Assembly (NCBI GenBank): GCA_017676145.1
Contig: GCA_017676145.1_3628.1
Direction: 5' to 3' (one strand)
Length of the DNA stretch: 64,000 nucleotides
Origin: a phage
The position numbers and the translations under genes are program-made. This document shows, piece by piece, positions 37,334-42,324 of the stretch. Position 1 is the first letter of the stretch, and the number at the start of each line of letters is the position of its first letter. Below the pieces are notes generated by a model. It ran no database searches. It had not been told where the DNA came from and saw nothing but the letters and a program-made list of their open reading frames with translations.

Positions 37334-37435
37334 AAGCTTTACCCCTCAAAACAGTATAACAAAATAGCCCTCGTGTTAGAGGGCTAGTATCTCCGATTAC
37401 TCTATTCTACCACATCTAATTAAGATTGGCAACAC

Positions 37436-38214
37436 TTAGATAAAACGCTTGAACATAGAAGGTGATGAGATTGATGGAATCACACAAGGAAGTGCTACCT
37501 CCTCTTTCTCCAGGAAATTAATCGCAGAAGCCACACAGTCGGCCCAGTCGTCTTTTCTGTTAAATGTTGATCTTTCCCCGTTGAATTTTTCAAGTTCAGT
37601 CAGAAATGCTTCCAGAGTATCAGGATGGAAACTGGATTTTACAATCCTCACCATTCCTTGTTGGGCAAGATTGGCAAAAGGTGAGAACCTTGTTAGTTTA
37701 GATTTGTTGGAAGGCATTGGATCTTCTTCAACCCTAAACCCTTCGGCGAGTAAGGATCTGGAGGAGGTTAAGAACTCACTCTTACCTGCCTGACCTGGGT
37801 CCACAGAGAATACGATTATACAATCATCACCATCAAACTGCGCCTGTTTCCTGATGATCACATCTCGTTCACCAGCCTTTTTACAGAACTTACCTTCCAG
37901 ACCTGTGGAATATCTCCCGTCATCCACGTTCTCAGGACAATAATCACCGGACAGGTAATAAAAGCCGTCGCTATCTTTACTTACCTTAACACTGGCGGTA
38001 AAGTCAGGAAATTTATTACCGGAAGTTCTCTCGGTTCCTGCCTTATCCCATGCCCTACAAGATACTGATCCAAGGGGTACTCTATCGGCATCACGAAGGA
38101 AAGATCTTTGAAAATAGTTTGCACCCTCAGGCTTTGCAAACCAGTTACCATGAAGAAGCTGAGCTTTTTCCAGTTCCGGCAGACCTTCAAGGAAAGCAAG
38201 GTATTCGGGGTTGT
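37436..38214 (-). CDS. terL: terminase large subunit, exon 3 (nuclease domain)
   Basis: reading frame is open upstream of the annotated GTG start back to about 38242 with no start codon; translation NPEYLAFLEGLPELEKAQLLHGNWF...DDWADCVA matches terminase C-terminal pattern. Confidence 0.6.
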
Positions 38215-39214
38215 CTCTTAAGCAGACAGGATTATCGAATCCTTATATTCAAAGGTGGTCGCAACACCACCTTCCGCACCTTTACGTGCTGCTGCATGTT
38301 ACCATGCAGAGTAGACTATATCACCACCCATCTCAGGGTGCTTCGCTTTTCGAGCGCCATAAGCTTGCGCCCTACTCCCTCTCGGGATAGTCGTTGAACT
38401 ACATTACCAATCGTAATTGTTTGAAATATAGGTGTAAGTCTTACGATCTTTTATTCCTTTAACAACACTAAAACTTACTCCCCACTTCTTAGCTATTTTA
38501 TTTACACACAAAACCCTGTCGCTAAGATCCTCGCAGATACCTATTATCTTGTGCTCACTTATCCTATTAGAGGTTGGCACTTTTCTAAAGTTAAACTCTT
38601 TAGAAATATCTGGGTATACTGAGCCATTCTTTATACCACTTACAAGTGGTTGATTGACACCAAACATTTCACAAATGTCTTTTACCCTTGCACCTTGCTC
38701 TAACAGCCTACATATTTCAAGAGCAGTGGCATCATCTAGGGACCTGTATCTATTGATATAGTCCTTTTTAAGTCCCATTTCATGAGCGTGATGTGTGTTT
38801 TCCTCAGGCGTTGTCCACTCAAGGTTCCATGCGGCGTTATTCAACTTATTACCATCCAGGTGGTTTACTTGAGTTTTCACGCTGGGATTATCATTATCAA
38901 CAAAAGTCATAGCAATCACTCTGTGGACTAGCACTTGGAACTTTTTACCGCCCTCGCACAAAGTTACCATAGCATAGCCAGTCTTTTTCTGCACATTAGG
39001 ATGGAGGAATTTATTAGAATACAGACTGTAAATTCTTCCATCGTATGTAGCACAATAATGATTGTAACCTAAAAAGCCTAAATTTTTCATTTCAAACATC
39101 TCCCTACTACAGGTTCGGAAGGGTAATTATAGCTGCTGATTGTCCGTTTAGCAATCGGATTTTCCAGCAATTAACGAAGTTATTCGACGTGCATTTCTGC
39201 ACGAAGCCACTATC
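38215..39214 (-). mobile_element. group I intron carrying an HNH homing endonuclease ORF
   Basis: minus-strand conserved elements P-like AATTGCTGGAAAATCCG (39156-39172), R GTTCAACGACTATCC (38384-38399), S GATATAGTCTAC (38311-38322); interrupts the terminase frame; boundaries approximate to a few nt. Confidence 0.65.
38404..39099 (-). CDS. HNH homing endonuclease (intron-encoded)
   Basis: 231 aa; HHLDGNKLNNAAWNLEWTTPEEN HNH motif; lies entirely within the intron. Confidence 0.75.
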   Translation of the reverse strand: MFEMKNLGFLGYNHYCATYDGRIYSLYSNKFLHPNVQKKTGYAMVTLCEGGKKFQVLVHRVIAMTFVDNDNPSVKTQVNHLDGNKLNNAAWNLEWTTPEENTHHAHEMGLKKDYINRYRSLDDATALEICRLLEQGARVKDICEMFGVNQPLVSGIKNGSVYPDISKEFNFRKVPTSNRISEHKIIGICEDLSDRVLCVNKIAKKWGVSFSVVKGIKDRKTYTYISNNYDW

Positions 39215-39536
39215 ATTTAATGGTTGCGCCTATAAACGAGAATGACAACGGTCTTGGCTTAATCTCCACACCTAGTCCGTTAACCGTGGTGTATTTCTCT
39301 ATTAACTCCTCTTTAGAGTCTCCCCAGATAAATTCACCGTCGCGCCGGATAAAATATCTTTTCTTACCACATTTCTCCGGATCTGGATACCCTTCATCGT
39401 CCAACCACCACCTAACCAGTTTGGCAAGCATGTGTTCTGAGTCGGGGTTACAGCTGATAACCATTCTTGATGGATACTTTGACTGAGATCGCAGACGAGA
39501 CATTAGATAGTCTATCTGCTCCCATTCGAATTGCGT
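39215..39536 (-). CDS. terL: terminase large subunit, exon 2
   Basis: frame open from 39539 to the stop at 39213-39215; translation TQFEWEQIDYLMSRLRS...VISCNPD...IGATIK; boundaries approximate. Confidence 0.55.
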
Positions 39537-39855
39537 CGTTTATGTTCAGGCAAGGTCGCTAGTCTTGCCCCGCCATTTTCAGGCAGCTGCATGTCTCCAT
39601 GCAGACCAGACTATATCTTATAAGCTATAACAACAGCTTACCCTCCCGTTTCGAATCGCTTGATTCTACGTCTTTCGACTAGTCGTTGAACGTTCATCCT
39701 CTCGGATGCTTCGCTGCGGATTATCTAAATCAACACTCTGTTACCATACCTTCGATCTCTCTTCGAAGCCTCTATTATGTTACCATAACAGGTTGGTGGT
39801 GTTAATAATAAAGATTTCCCCGCAATTAGGGAGGTTTTACGAGAGCTACAAATTA
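39537..39855 (-). mobile_element. group I intron (no ORF)
   Basis: minus-strand P AATTGCGGGGAAATC (39813-39827), Q TAATCCGCAGCGAAGC (39708-39723), R GTTCAACGACTAGTCG (39676-39691), S AAGATATAGTCTGG (39606-39619) in canonical order; candidate guide sequence GCTCTC pairs with exon end GAGGGU; stops in all frames. Confidence 0.7.
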
Positions 39856-40281
39856 ACCCTCATCGAAGCAAACCATGGTGTACTCAAGCCCTTGATGGTT
39901 AAGCTTATCTTGGACATACTCCATGTGGCAGTATTTTACAACGGCCCCTTTTTTGCTCCTGTCCCACTTGCCAGTGCTCGGATCAAACCGTGGAAAAATA
40001 AACTTATGATCCTTCTCTCTGAACTTTGGTTTAATGTTTTCAGGCAGATCACTGTAAATAGCTACTGCTTTAGGCCATAGACCTCCTTCACCCTCCAGCT
40101 GCGGGGTTGTTCTTCGGAACATAACCACAGAGCTGTGTGGGTCATCAATAATTTTAAGTGGCATTAGCTGCAAGAGGAACGACTTGCCAGAACCGGCTGC
40201 ACCTCCGATCACCAAAATATCTGCATCGTTCTCAAGGATCATCTTCTGCTTTTCAGAACACGGTCCGTAAATCTTAGACAT
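39856..40281 (-). CDS. terL: terminase large subunit, exon 1 (ATPase N-terminus)
   Basis: Walker A GGAAGSGKS and Walker B MVCFDE in translation; ORF ends at a stop that lies inside the intron. Confidence 0.75.
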
Positions 40282-40568
40282 TAACCTCTCTCCTTTGGAA
40301 ACAGTGTTCTTATATAGTCTTGCAAAATGATCAATTTAGCTCTATCATTACTACAAGACAGGTTATTATCCCTCATAATGCCAGAATTCACCGCATCTGG
40401 CGCACCTTTCTTCAAAGGGATAGCTTTAGCAGGTGGTTTCATAGCACCCTCGGGAGGTTTAACAATCAACCTTCCTACATCCGGAGGGTCAATCTTATAT
40501 TCTTTTTCGACACTTGTCGCACATCCGCACAGCAGTAAGCAAGCAACTAACAATACGGTGGCTCTCAT
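40281..40568 (-). CDS. o-spanin (Rz1-like outer-membrane lipoprotein)
   Basis: 95 aa; signal peptide with LLCGC lipobox; proline-rich body; overlaps i-spanin gene. Confidence 0.65.
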   Translation of the reverse strand: MRATVLLVACLLLCGCATSVEKEYKIDPPDVGRLIVKPPEGAMKPPAKAIPLKKGAPDAVNSGIMRDNNLSCSNDRAKLIILQDYIRTLFPKERG

Positions 40569-41384: not shown

Positions 41385-41461
41385 TGGTCTCCACGGAGTG
41401 ATTCGAACACTCGACCTCCTGATCCCAAATCAGGCGCTCTACCAAGCTGAGCTACGCGGAG
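41385..41461 (-). tRNA. tRNA-Pro (anticodon UGG)
   Basis: hand-folded cloverleaf: acceptor CTCCGCG/CGTGGAG, anticodon loop TTTGGGA, T-loop TTCGAAT, 3' CCA encoded. Confidence 0.7.
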
Positions 41462-41472
41462 TATTTATAATT

Positions 41473-41547
41473 TGGTGGCCCTGGGTGGAATTGAACCACC
41501 GTCTGGCGATTATGAGTCGCTTGCTTGAACCTTCCAGCTACAGGGCC
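41473..41547 (-). tRNA. tRNA-Met (anticodon CAU; could be Ile2 if lysidinylated)
   Basis: acceptor GGCCCTG/CAGGGCC, anticodon loop CTCATAA, T-arm GGTGG-TTCAATT-CCACC, CCA encoded. Confidence 0.65.
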
Positions 41548-41548
41548 A

Positions 41549-41624
41549 TGGTGCTGATGGCAGGACTTGAACCTGCAACCTATTGATTACAAATCAATTG
41601 CACTACCGATTGTGCTACATCAGC
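41549..41624 (-). tRNA. tRNA-Thr (anticodon UGU)
   Basis: acceptor GCTGATG/CATCAGC, anticodon arm ATTGA-TTTGTAA-TCAAT, T-loop TTCAAGT, CCA encoded. Confidence 0.7.
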
Positions 41625-41629
41625 AAAAA

Positions 41630-41728
41630 GGTGCTAGGTGATGGAATCGAACCACCTATGTATTCAACGACTACCTCGTCTATTTTCAGGATTAAAAATC
41701 CTCGCCCTTGCCAAAGGGCTTACCTAGC
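41630..41728 (-). tRNA. atypical tRNA-like gene, anticodon UUU (Lys) candidate, with about 30 nt variable region
   Basis: perfect 7 bp acceptor GCTAGGT/ACCTAGC, D-arm GCCC-TTTGGCAA-GGGC, anticodon arm GAGGA-TTTTTAA-TCCTG, T-arm GGTGG-TTCGATT-CCATC; extra hairpin GACGA-GGTAG-TCGTT in variable region. Confidence 0.45.
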
Positions 41729-41826
41729 GCAATATGTTGACCATGTGGCTAGTCGGCGATGACGACTGTAACATTTGATAATCCGGTTCTGCTTCCGGCT
41801 TTCGCTTAATTACAAGGTCAACAATG

Positions 41827-41917
41827 TGGCGGAGAGTAATGGAATCGAACCATCATCGAGTCATCCTCAACGGGACGGTTTTCAAGACCGCTTGAGCACC
41901 ATTGCTCCCTACCCTCC
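41827..41917 (-). tRNA. tRNA-Ser (anticodon UGA), long variable arm
   Basis: acceptor GGAGGGT/ACTCTCC, anticodon arm GCGGT-CTTGAAA-ACCGT, T-loop TTCGATT, CCA encoded. Confidence 0.65.
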
Positions 41918-42031
41918 TTTATAAATTACACTGATAATGACACTGATTTTCGAGCAGTTAGTGACTAGTATAAACGACGATAAATATCAATGCCATTATC
42001 TGTATGATTTATGCATTTAAAAATATAAATT

Positions 42032-42119
42032 TGGTGGTGAGTGATGGAGTCGAACCACCCGAATCGCAATGATAACAGATTTACAGTCTGCCCCGCTACC
42101 CCTACGGAATTAACTCACC
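42032..42119 (-). tRNA. tRNA-Tyr (anticodon GUA), long variable arm
   Basis: acceptor GGTGAGT/ACTCACC, anticodon arm GCAGA-CTGTAAA-TCTGT, T-loop TTCGACT, CCA encoded. Confidence 0.65.
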
Positions 42120-42249
42120 TAAATACTAATATTTAAATTCTTTTTAAAATAGCTAGTGTTCTCACCACTAACTATGAGGTATCGGTAAAGTGGTTACCGC
42201 CACTTGCCGAAGATTTACTCTGCTAAAGTAAGCTACATTAAAAAGAACT

Positions 42250-42324
42250 TGGCACCCCGTACTGGACTCGAACCAGTGTCAACGGCTTAGAAGGCCGCTG
42301 CTTTATCCACTAAGCTAACAGGGC
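42250..42324 (-). tRNA. tRNA-Arg (anticodon UCU)
   Basis: acceptor GCCCTGT/ACGGGGT (two G-U pairs), D-arm GCTT-AGTGGATA-AAGC, anticodon loop CTTCTAA, T-loop TTCGAGT, CCA encoded. Confidence 0.65.

Follow-up and report, generated by a model that had tools for sequence, protein, structure and literature searches.

In the 64,000-nt stretch of phage DNA analysed here (hereafter the window; GenBank assembly GCA_017676145.1, contig GCA_017676145.1_3628.1), the gene for the large terminase subunit (TerL, gene terL) lies on the minus strand between positions 40281 and 37436. We put the probability at roughly 93% that it is an rV5-like Vequintavirus terL broken by two mobile, self-splicing group I introns of the T4 type, the second of which carries an HNH endonuclease gene. 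A 3.1-kb stretch spanning the locus has 96.7% identity along its whole length to Escherichia phage V5/rV5 (Vequintavirus), and dozens of sister phages reach 96-97% there. Three terL exons, two group I introns and an HNH gene in the second intron had been proposed in an earlier note made from the letters alone, and this outline is borne out by the scores against Rfam family RF00028, by the open frame of 515 aa left after joining the exons, and by collinearity over 1548 nt with uninterrupted genes. The parts of the locus are as follows.

40281-39856, minus strand: TerL exon 1, codons 1-142, defined by the open reading frame (ORF) and the intron-less alleles of ECML-10, JeffSchatz and C9
39855-39537, minus strand: intron 1, 319 nt, an ORF-less group I intron in phase 0, between Gly142 and Thr143
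39536-39220, minus strand: TerL exon 2, codons 143-247 and the first two bases of Ile248
39219-38241, minus strand: intron 2, 979 nt, a group I intron in phase 2, within codon Ile248 of ...GATIFDNP...
38404-39099, minus strand: HNH homing endonuclease ORF, 231 aa, inside intron 2
38240-37436, minus strand: TerL exon 3, last base of Ile248 through the stop, with the RNaseH-like nuclease domain

Joining the three exons in silico gives an open frame of 1548 nt encoding 515 aa, and this spliced coding sequence (CDS) aligns without a break over exactly 1548 nt with the terminase genes of FFH2, Murica, JeffSchatz, CM1 and ~20 more records, which are uninterrupted and 95-96% identical to it. Because the spliced CDS is collinear with these sister-phage genes and equal to them in length, the splice sites are fixed to the base, as the earlier note had expected of a comparison with intron-less alleles. 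Separate homologs of the three segments as independent genes would have refuted the split-gene reading, by the earlier note's own condition; instead, FFH2, Murica, JeffSchatz and many other phages have the segments joined in one continuous gene. The spliced protein matches Pfam Terminase_6N (72.6 bits, residues 25-294) and Terminase_6C (27.9 bits, residues 394-489), and over residues 1-513 it matches PHROG 979 (terminase large subunit) with E = 1.7e-208. The predicted product thus has the T4-type (Terminase_6) layout, with a Walker A/B ATPase and an RNaseH-like nuclease in one polypeptide.

Exon 1 holds Walker A (GGAAGSGKS) and Walker B (MVCFDEG), and its final codon is GGU, with U at -1. The N-terminal ORF (40281-39853, stop included) ends in ...MVCFDEG and a stop, i.e. 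immediately past the Walker B motif, just as had been noticed at first reading. Exon 2 ends in ...GCAACCAU (39220), and inspection of the sequence at its 5′ end found neither a start codon nor a ribosome-binding site. Exon 3 opens with AUUCGAUAAUCC at 38240, i.e. (A)UUCGAUAAUCCU, translated FDNPVCLRDNPEY. After splicing, the first junction would read GAUGAGGGU/ACGCAA and the second GCAACCAU/AUUCGAU (the slash marks the junction), and across the second junction TerL reads ...GATIFDNPVCLRDNPEY.... The third coding segment had been taken to open at NPEY; its actual start is 26 nt earlier, with FDNPVCLRD. Both insertion sites lie in conserved TerL sequence, one directly after the Walker B DEG and the other in the conserved ATIFDNP stretch.

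Intron 1 scores 85.2 bits against RF00028 (39865-39587, minus strand; full model 1-253), where the curated cut-off is 50 bits, and with E = 2.8e-20 over the whole window chance is excluded for it. At the curated threshold it was the sole match to the model in the window. The range 39537-39855 and the junction marks 39536/39856 given in the earlier note proved exact by the intron-less alleles. An in-frame UAA stands at the very start of this intron and a G at its 3′ end (...AUAAACG). The core elements, the guide and the GNRA-capped hairpins that had been quoted from the letters each occur once on the minus strand, at the places given for them:

39846-39841, minus strand: guide GCTCTC of intron 1
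39827-39813, minus strand: P element of intron 1
39723-39708, minus strand: Q element of intron 1
39691-39676, minus strand: R element of intron 1
39619-39606, minus strand: S element of intron 1
39604-39587 (intron 1) and 38309-38292 (intron 2), minus strand: GNRA-capped hairpins

In P1 of intron 1, AUGAGGGU pairs with GCUCUCGU, leaving a U.G pair at the 5′ splice site, and the proposed guide GCTCTC agrees with this pairing. Based on the RF00028 alignment and a fold constrained on the core helices, intron 1 has no P2, an extended P5, the P7.1/P7.2 hairpins (GUC-GAAA-GAC and GAAUC-AAGC-GAUUC in the constrained fold) and P9, P9.1 and P9.2. In each of four alleles all 102 of 102 proposed pairs are standard, and every substitution in a paired column keeps pairing. 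Two of these are fully compensated, with C-G for U-A in P5a and G-C for U-A in P8.

For intron 2, the borders were set by the intron-less alleles of JohannBauhin, HeinrichReichert and JeffSchatz; in an empty allele the site reads ...GCAACAAUAUUCGAU.... The intron therefore runs from 39219 to 38241, and the range 38215-39214 first given for it was off by 5 nt at the 5′ end and by 26 nt at the 3′ end. Its terminal base is G (...AUAUAAGG). In P1, CCAU/UA (the slash marks the splice site) pairs with UAGUGG (CCAU with GUGG), again with U.G at the 5′ splice site, which is followed by AUU AAA UGA, so that an in-frame stop lies just inside the intron. In a permissive scan of the locus, the window copy of intron 2 gave only two sub-threshold half matches to RF00028 (29.4 and 23.5 bits), because a 732-nt segment with the HNH gene sits in the P6 loop and the covariance model cannot bridge an insertion of 0.7 kb. 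This segment (39131-38400) stands in place of a 21-nt P6a hairpin in the ORF-less allele. The covariance-model check suggested in the earlier note therefore came out positive for intron 1 directly and for intron 2 through its ORF-less alleles, which score 95.6 bits (RudolfGeigy) and 87.5 bits (C9); the arms of the window intron are 98.4% identical to intron 2 of RudolfGeigy. A constrained fold of the RudolfGeigy allele has P2 to P9.2 including P7.1/P7.2, the latter as UCCC-GAGA-GGGA and GGGCGC...GCGCUC.

In the minimum-energy fold of the ORF-less intron 2, UCGAAU just after P2 pairs with the first six bases of exon 3, AUUCGA (1514-1519 with 1750-1755 of the locus sequence); the equivalents in the window are at about 39187-39182 and 38240-38235. 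This pairing could be a 3′-exon-binding contact, or it could be chance.

Both introns follow a U and have a terminal G, as fixed by the intron-less alleles. The constrained folds gave a complete architecture from P1 to P9.2 with P7.1/P7.2 in each, and the P7 (GACUA/UAGUC) pseudoknot was formed, its pairing unbroken in every allele. In the Michel–Westhof classification, additional hairpins P7.1/P7.2, placed between P7 and P3′, reportedly mark subgroup IA, the class of the T4 introns. By this criterion both introns belong to subgroup IA (T4-type phage introns). The two had been described as related, and this holds at the family level; a closer kinship did not stand. By BLAST they have only a 35-nt P7′/P9 stretch in common. 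Closer 3′ domains are found in other phages: for intron 1 in the T4 td intron (84% identity over 79 nt), and for intron 2 in the nrdD intron of phage VEcB (85% identity over 80 nt). A recent duplication of one intron from the other was rejected on this BLAST result and on the closer 3′ domains in T4 td and VEcB nrdD. Moreover, the GNRA-capped hairpin shared by both (CUGCAUGG-NRA-CAUGCAG) is also found in T4 td, hence it is a family trait and no specific link between them. On sequence comparison, introns 1 and 2 are related only at the family level. No other group I intron came up when the full 64 kb was scanned with Rfam at permissive settings.

The HNH ORF, which had been placed correctly at 38404-39099 inside intron 2, matches Pfam HNH_3 in its N-terminal part with 28.0 bits (cut-off 24.8), followed by HTH_23, HTH_7 and HTH_5 matches in the C-terminal part. 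It matches PHROG 59 (HNH endonuclease) with E = 6.9e-51 and, over ~100 N-terminal residues, I-HmuI (PDB 1U3E) with E = 4.9e-12. Translation more likely starts at Met4 (position 39090), because a Shine–Dalgarno-like GGGAG lies about 10 nt upstream of it. The HNH gene is missing from the otherwise identical introns of RudolfGeigy and C9; thus the ORF lies in a peripheral loop and is present or absent independently of the intron, as is the case for homing endonucleases.

Sister phages about 96% identical to each other carry the two insertions in every combination, with at least eight terL allele states. Besides empty alleles, there are alleles with intron 1 alone, with intron 1 plus an EndoVII-like ORF, with HNH-bearing intron 2 alone and with intron 2 alone in its ORF-less form, and these states also occur combined. 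Examples are:

ECML-10: intron 1 lacking
JohannBauhin: intron 2 lacking
RudolfGeigy: both introns present, but no HNH gene in intron 2
C9: intron 2 alone, in its ORF-less form
JeffSchatz, FFH2, Murica and some 20 others: intron-free

In HdK5, HeinrichReichert, JES2013 and others, a 591-nt EndoVII-like ('recombination endonuclease') ORF replaces P8 of intron 1 (1064-1654 of the locus sequence in both HdK5 and HeinrichReichert), and it is absent from intron 1 of the window. Intron 1 thus exists with and without a second, unrelated homing-endonuclease gene. The exons next to the introns differ with intron state as well. At the intron 1 site, GGU is found in 6 of 6 intron-1-bearing alleles examined and the synonymous GGC in 3 of 3 alleles without it; at the intron 2 site, ACC (its C pairs with the guide) is found in all six bearing alleles and ACA in all three lacking ones. 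At both sites, the intron-linked exon base is the base required for P1 pairing, and this linkage fits a splicing constraint, co-conversion during homing, or both.

Several database records around this locus are odd in their own right. In phage V18 (NC_041937) the terminase is annotated as two CDSs, owing to a 9-nt tandem duplication (TGGTTTGCT) and the loss of 1 nt from GAGGGC. This lesion (within 700-760 of the locus sequence) coincides exactly with the intron 1 site; either it is an error of sequencing, or it may be a scar left by repair at a homing site. Phage Av-05 (NC_025830) has terminase fragments and pieces resembling both introns at the two ends of its circular record, in inconsistent orientations, which suggests an assembly problem at an intron-bearing terL, and we dropped it as an outgroup for the odd orientation of these pieces. 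About 18 GenBank MG0656xx records labelled 'UNVERIFIED Campylobacter phage' (e.g. C9) are about 96-97% identical to E. coli vequintaviruses at the locus; their Campylobacter host label is probably wrong, or reflects contamination.

In the mechanism that we propose, the terL locus would be transcribed as a single pre-mRNA in which each intron folds its P3-P8 catalytic core, and the internal guide of each intron would pair with the upstream exon end, so that the 5′ splice site carries a U.G wobble. This site would then be attacked by a free guanosine, and the released exon end would attack after the terminal G of the intron. Two such self-splicing events in the TerL pre-mRNA would yield the joined 1548-nt coding sequence and from it the 515-aa TerL. 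On unspliced RNA, ribosomes would be halted and would terminate at the in-frame stops at or just after the 5′ splice sites (UAA at once in intron 1; AUU AAA UGA in intron 2). In a mixed infection, the I-HmuI-like HNH enzyme would cut or nick intron-less terminase alleles, and recombinational repair would copy intron 2 in, along with the flanking exon markers, i.e. intron 2 would home through HNH cleavage of empty alleles. Homing of this kind has indirect support in a patchy distribution among phages about 96% identical and in the exon flanks that differ with intron presence. As the earlier note had supposed, packaging should depend on splicing, which is a sound inference. Splicing must work, because plaque-forming phages such as rV5 share the architecture and TerL is essential.

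Some points weigh against this reading. In the literature we found no RNA data for this phage or for any Vequintavirus, splicing, its efficiency and self-splicing in vitro being what we infer; the searches on vequintavirus terminase introns turned up only the rV5 genome paper, a BASEL annotation remark and the reverse-transcription PCR (RT-PCR) on the Certrevirus CB7. The window intron 2 as a whole falls under the Rfam cut-off, and its group I case rests on the ORF-less allele. The P10 pairings are weak, about 3 bp, as judged by eye. The covariation in intron 1 supports its structure but is not proof by itself, because only four closely related sequences were compared, one of which had served to derive the structure. 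Finally, the nuclease activity of the HNH protein and its target site are predicted.

If there were no splicing, TerL could be made as two or three separate polypeptides that assemble post-translationally, like the NrdA of Aeh1, which is split by mobE. HNH insertions that do not splice are indeed known (Aeh1 nrdA and CB7_245, cited in PMC7344957), and many database records list the pieces as separate 'terminase' CDSs. However, the group I core of each insertion is complete and scores at or above the Rfam cut-off (that of intron 2 via its ORF-less allele). Neither exon 2 nor exon 3 opens with a start codon or a ribosome-binding site; in exon 2 a Met is first reached 11 codons in, and the first possible start of exon 3, a GTG, comes ~104 codons in. 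Moreover, intron 2 splits a codon, and the exon flanks covary with the presence of the introns exactly as P1 pairing demands, so that we regard separate polypeptides as very improbable.

The same slight chance is given to the view that one or both introns are decayed relics that splice poorly and leave the terminase allele crippled or non-functional. Such decay after fixation is predicted by the homing-cycle model, and ORF-less forms of the introns do exist, but the core scores are high, all 102 modelled pairs are intact and kept so by compensatory changes, and rV5, typing phage 5 and SophiaRose, which form plaques, share this architecture, which implies that the introns work, TerL being essential for packaging. 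Least probable of all is that the HNH protein serves chiefly as an accessory factor of the terminase, in the manner of HK97-type packaging machines, for although HNH proteins adjoining terminase genes can stimulate packaging (Kala et al. 2014, cited in PMC7344957), this ORF is missing from most sister phages, whose terminase genes are intact, it sits in an intron loop, and its product resembles the intron-encoded I-HmuI, with the HNH plus helix-turn-helix layout typical of homing enzymes.

The reading of terL as a gene with two group I introns has close precedents. The T4 td intron (group IA, carrying I-TevI) has the same GNRA-capped P9 hairpin CUGCAUGGNGACAUGCAG and is 84% identical to intron 1 from P7′ through P9, P9.1 and P9.2 to the 3′ splice site. 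Like intron 1, T4 td is also said to show the P7.1/P7.2 arrangement and to meet an in-frame stop shortly after it begins. In contrast, the T4 intron interrupts td rather than terL, it holds a GIY-YIG gene whereas intron 1 here is ORF-less, its 5′ half has no detectable DNA similarity to intron 1, and intron 1 has no P2. The nrdD (anaerobic ribonucleotide reductase) intron of the Justusliebigvirus VEcB shares the 3′ domain of intron 2 (85% over 80 nt) but differs in host gene, 5′ half and inserted ORF. The HNH protein of the window shares its N-terminal HNH domain with I-HmuI, an HNH nicking endonuclease of Bacillus phage SPO1, which is likewise encoded within a phage group I intron; the two differ in the C-terminal DNA-binding region (helix-turn-helix modules in the window protein) and in the target gene, and the activity of the window enzyme is a prediction.

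Among terminase genes, rV5 (DQ832317 / NC_011041) has the same three exons, the same 319-nt intron 1 and the same 979-nt intron 2 with a 231-aa HNH ORF, with no indels at the junctions. The window is a different isolate, with about 3% point differences from it, including a compensated P8 pair in intron 1 and ACG versus ACA at exon 2 +1 to +3. In its GenBank and RefSeq records, 'terminase large subunit ORF64ABC' is joined from three pieces and encloses 'HNH homing endonuclease ORF 65', and the genome paper has a section 'Introns in terminase' and thanks D. Shub for help in locating the intron (Kropinski et al. 2013, Virol J 10:76, PMC3606486). BASEL phage records annotate spliced terminase joins for several allele types. 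In the Certrevirus CB7, a Pectobacterium phage that like the window belongs to Vequintavirinae, an HNH-bearing terminase intron was found to splice by RT-PCR and sequencing (PMC7344957). CB7 TerL is 51-60% identical and has a group I-like intron with HNH at Walker B, but there is a single intron (372-1350 of the locus sequence), and it lies between the D and E codons of Walker B, 6 nt upstream of the intron 1 site. Hence different introns target the same Walker B motif at slightly different positions. As the sole earlier case, Kropinski 2013 (PMC3606486) names the terL group I intron of Lactobacillus phage LL-H (Mikkonen and Alatossava 1995), an unrelated siphovirus with a single intron.

In the window, terL is flanked on either side by the o-spanin gene and the portal gene. 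The TerL start at 40281 overlaps the upstream o-spanin stop (ATGA; ORFs 40281-40568 and 39853-40281), therefore translation of TerL may be linked to the transcript of the lysis genes. One further feature lies past the TerL stop, on its downstream side:

37383-37410, minus strand: GC-rich hairpin followed by a T run, AGCCCTCTAACACGAGGGCTATTTTGTT (coordinates by eye)

This hairpin is likely an intrinsic terminator, and the rV5 record gives a Rho-independent terminator at the homologous site.

Upstream of the lysis and terminase genes, a cluster of tRNA genes (Pro, Met, Thr, Ser, Tyr, Arg) occupies 41385-42324 on the minus strand. The tRNA at 42035-42119, annotated Tyr in rV5, was missed by ARAGORN and found by Rfam, and the Ser tRNA at 41827-41917 was missed by the Rfam tRNA model. 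Between tRNA-Thr and tRNA-Ser lies a tRNA-like gene of 97-99 nt (41630-41728, minus strand), which scores 35.5 bits with the Rfam tRNA model (cut-off 29), is given by ARAGORN as 'tRNA-???' with a 4-base anticodon, and has no counterpart among the annotations of the rV5 record. Judged by eye, its acceptor stem is 7 bp, its variable arm is long, and its anticodon arm is odd, being either GGAUU-UUU-AAUCC or one with a UUUUUAA loop.

The twin-intron arrangement of terL is already known, and as it has been published for rV5 since 2013 it opens no new question. What is added here is modest: base-exact splice sites, a corrected intron 2 boundary, the placement of the ORFs (P6 in intron 2 and, in relatives, P8 in intron 1) and a catalogue of allele states. 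It matters mainly for annotation, as many sister records list the pieces as separate 'terminase' or 'hypothetical' genes, and the exact splice sites allow a single 515-aa TerL to be annotated correctly.

More tentatively, and we consider it rather unlikely, the terL locus may be an arena of intron and endonuclease warfare, in which the introns would be weapons of competition that cut the packaging gene of co-infecting rivals rather than neutral passengers. The diversity of allele states, the exon markers linked to the introns and the V18 lesion at the intron 1 site can be cited for it. Interference competition by intron-encoded endonucleases is a known idea, which would here be extended to terL and to the vequintaviruses. 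In any case, with empty, intron-only and intron-plus-endonuclease alleles among near-identical phages, the locus is a neat natural illustration of the homing cycle at work in a late gene that is essential.

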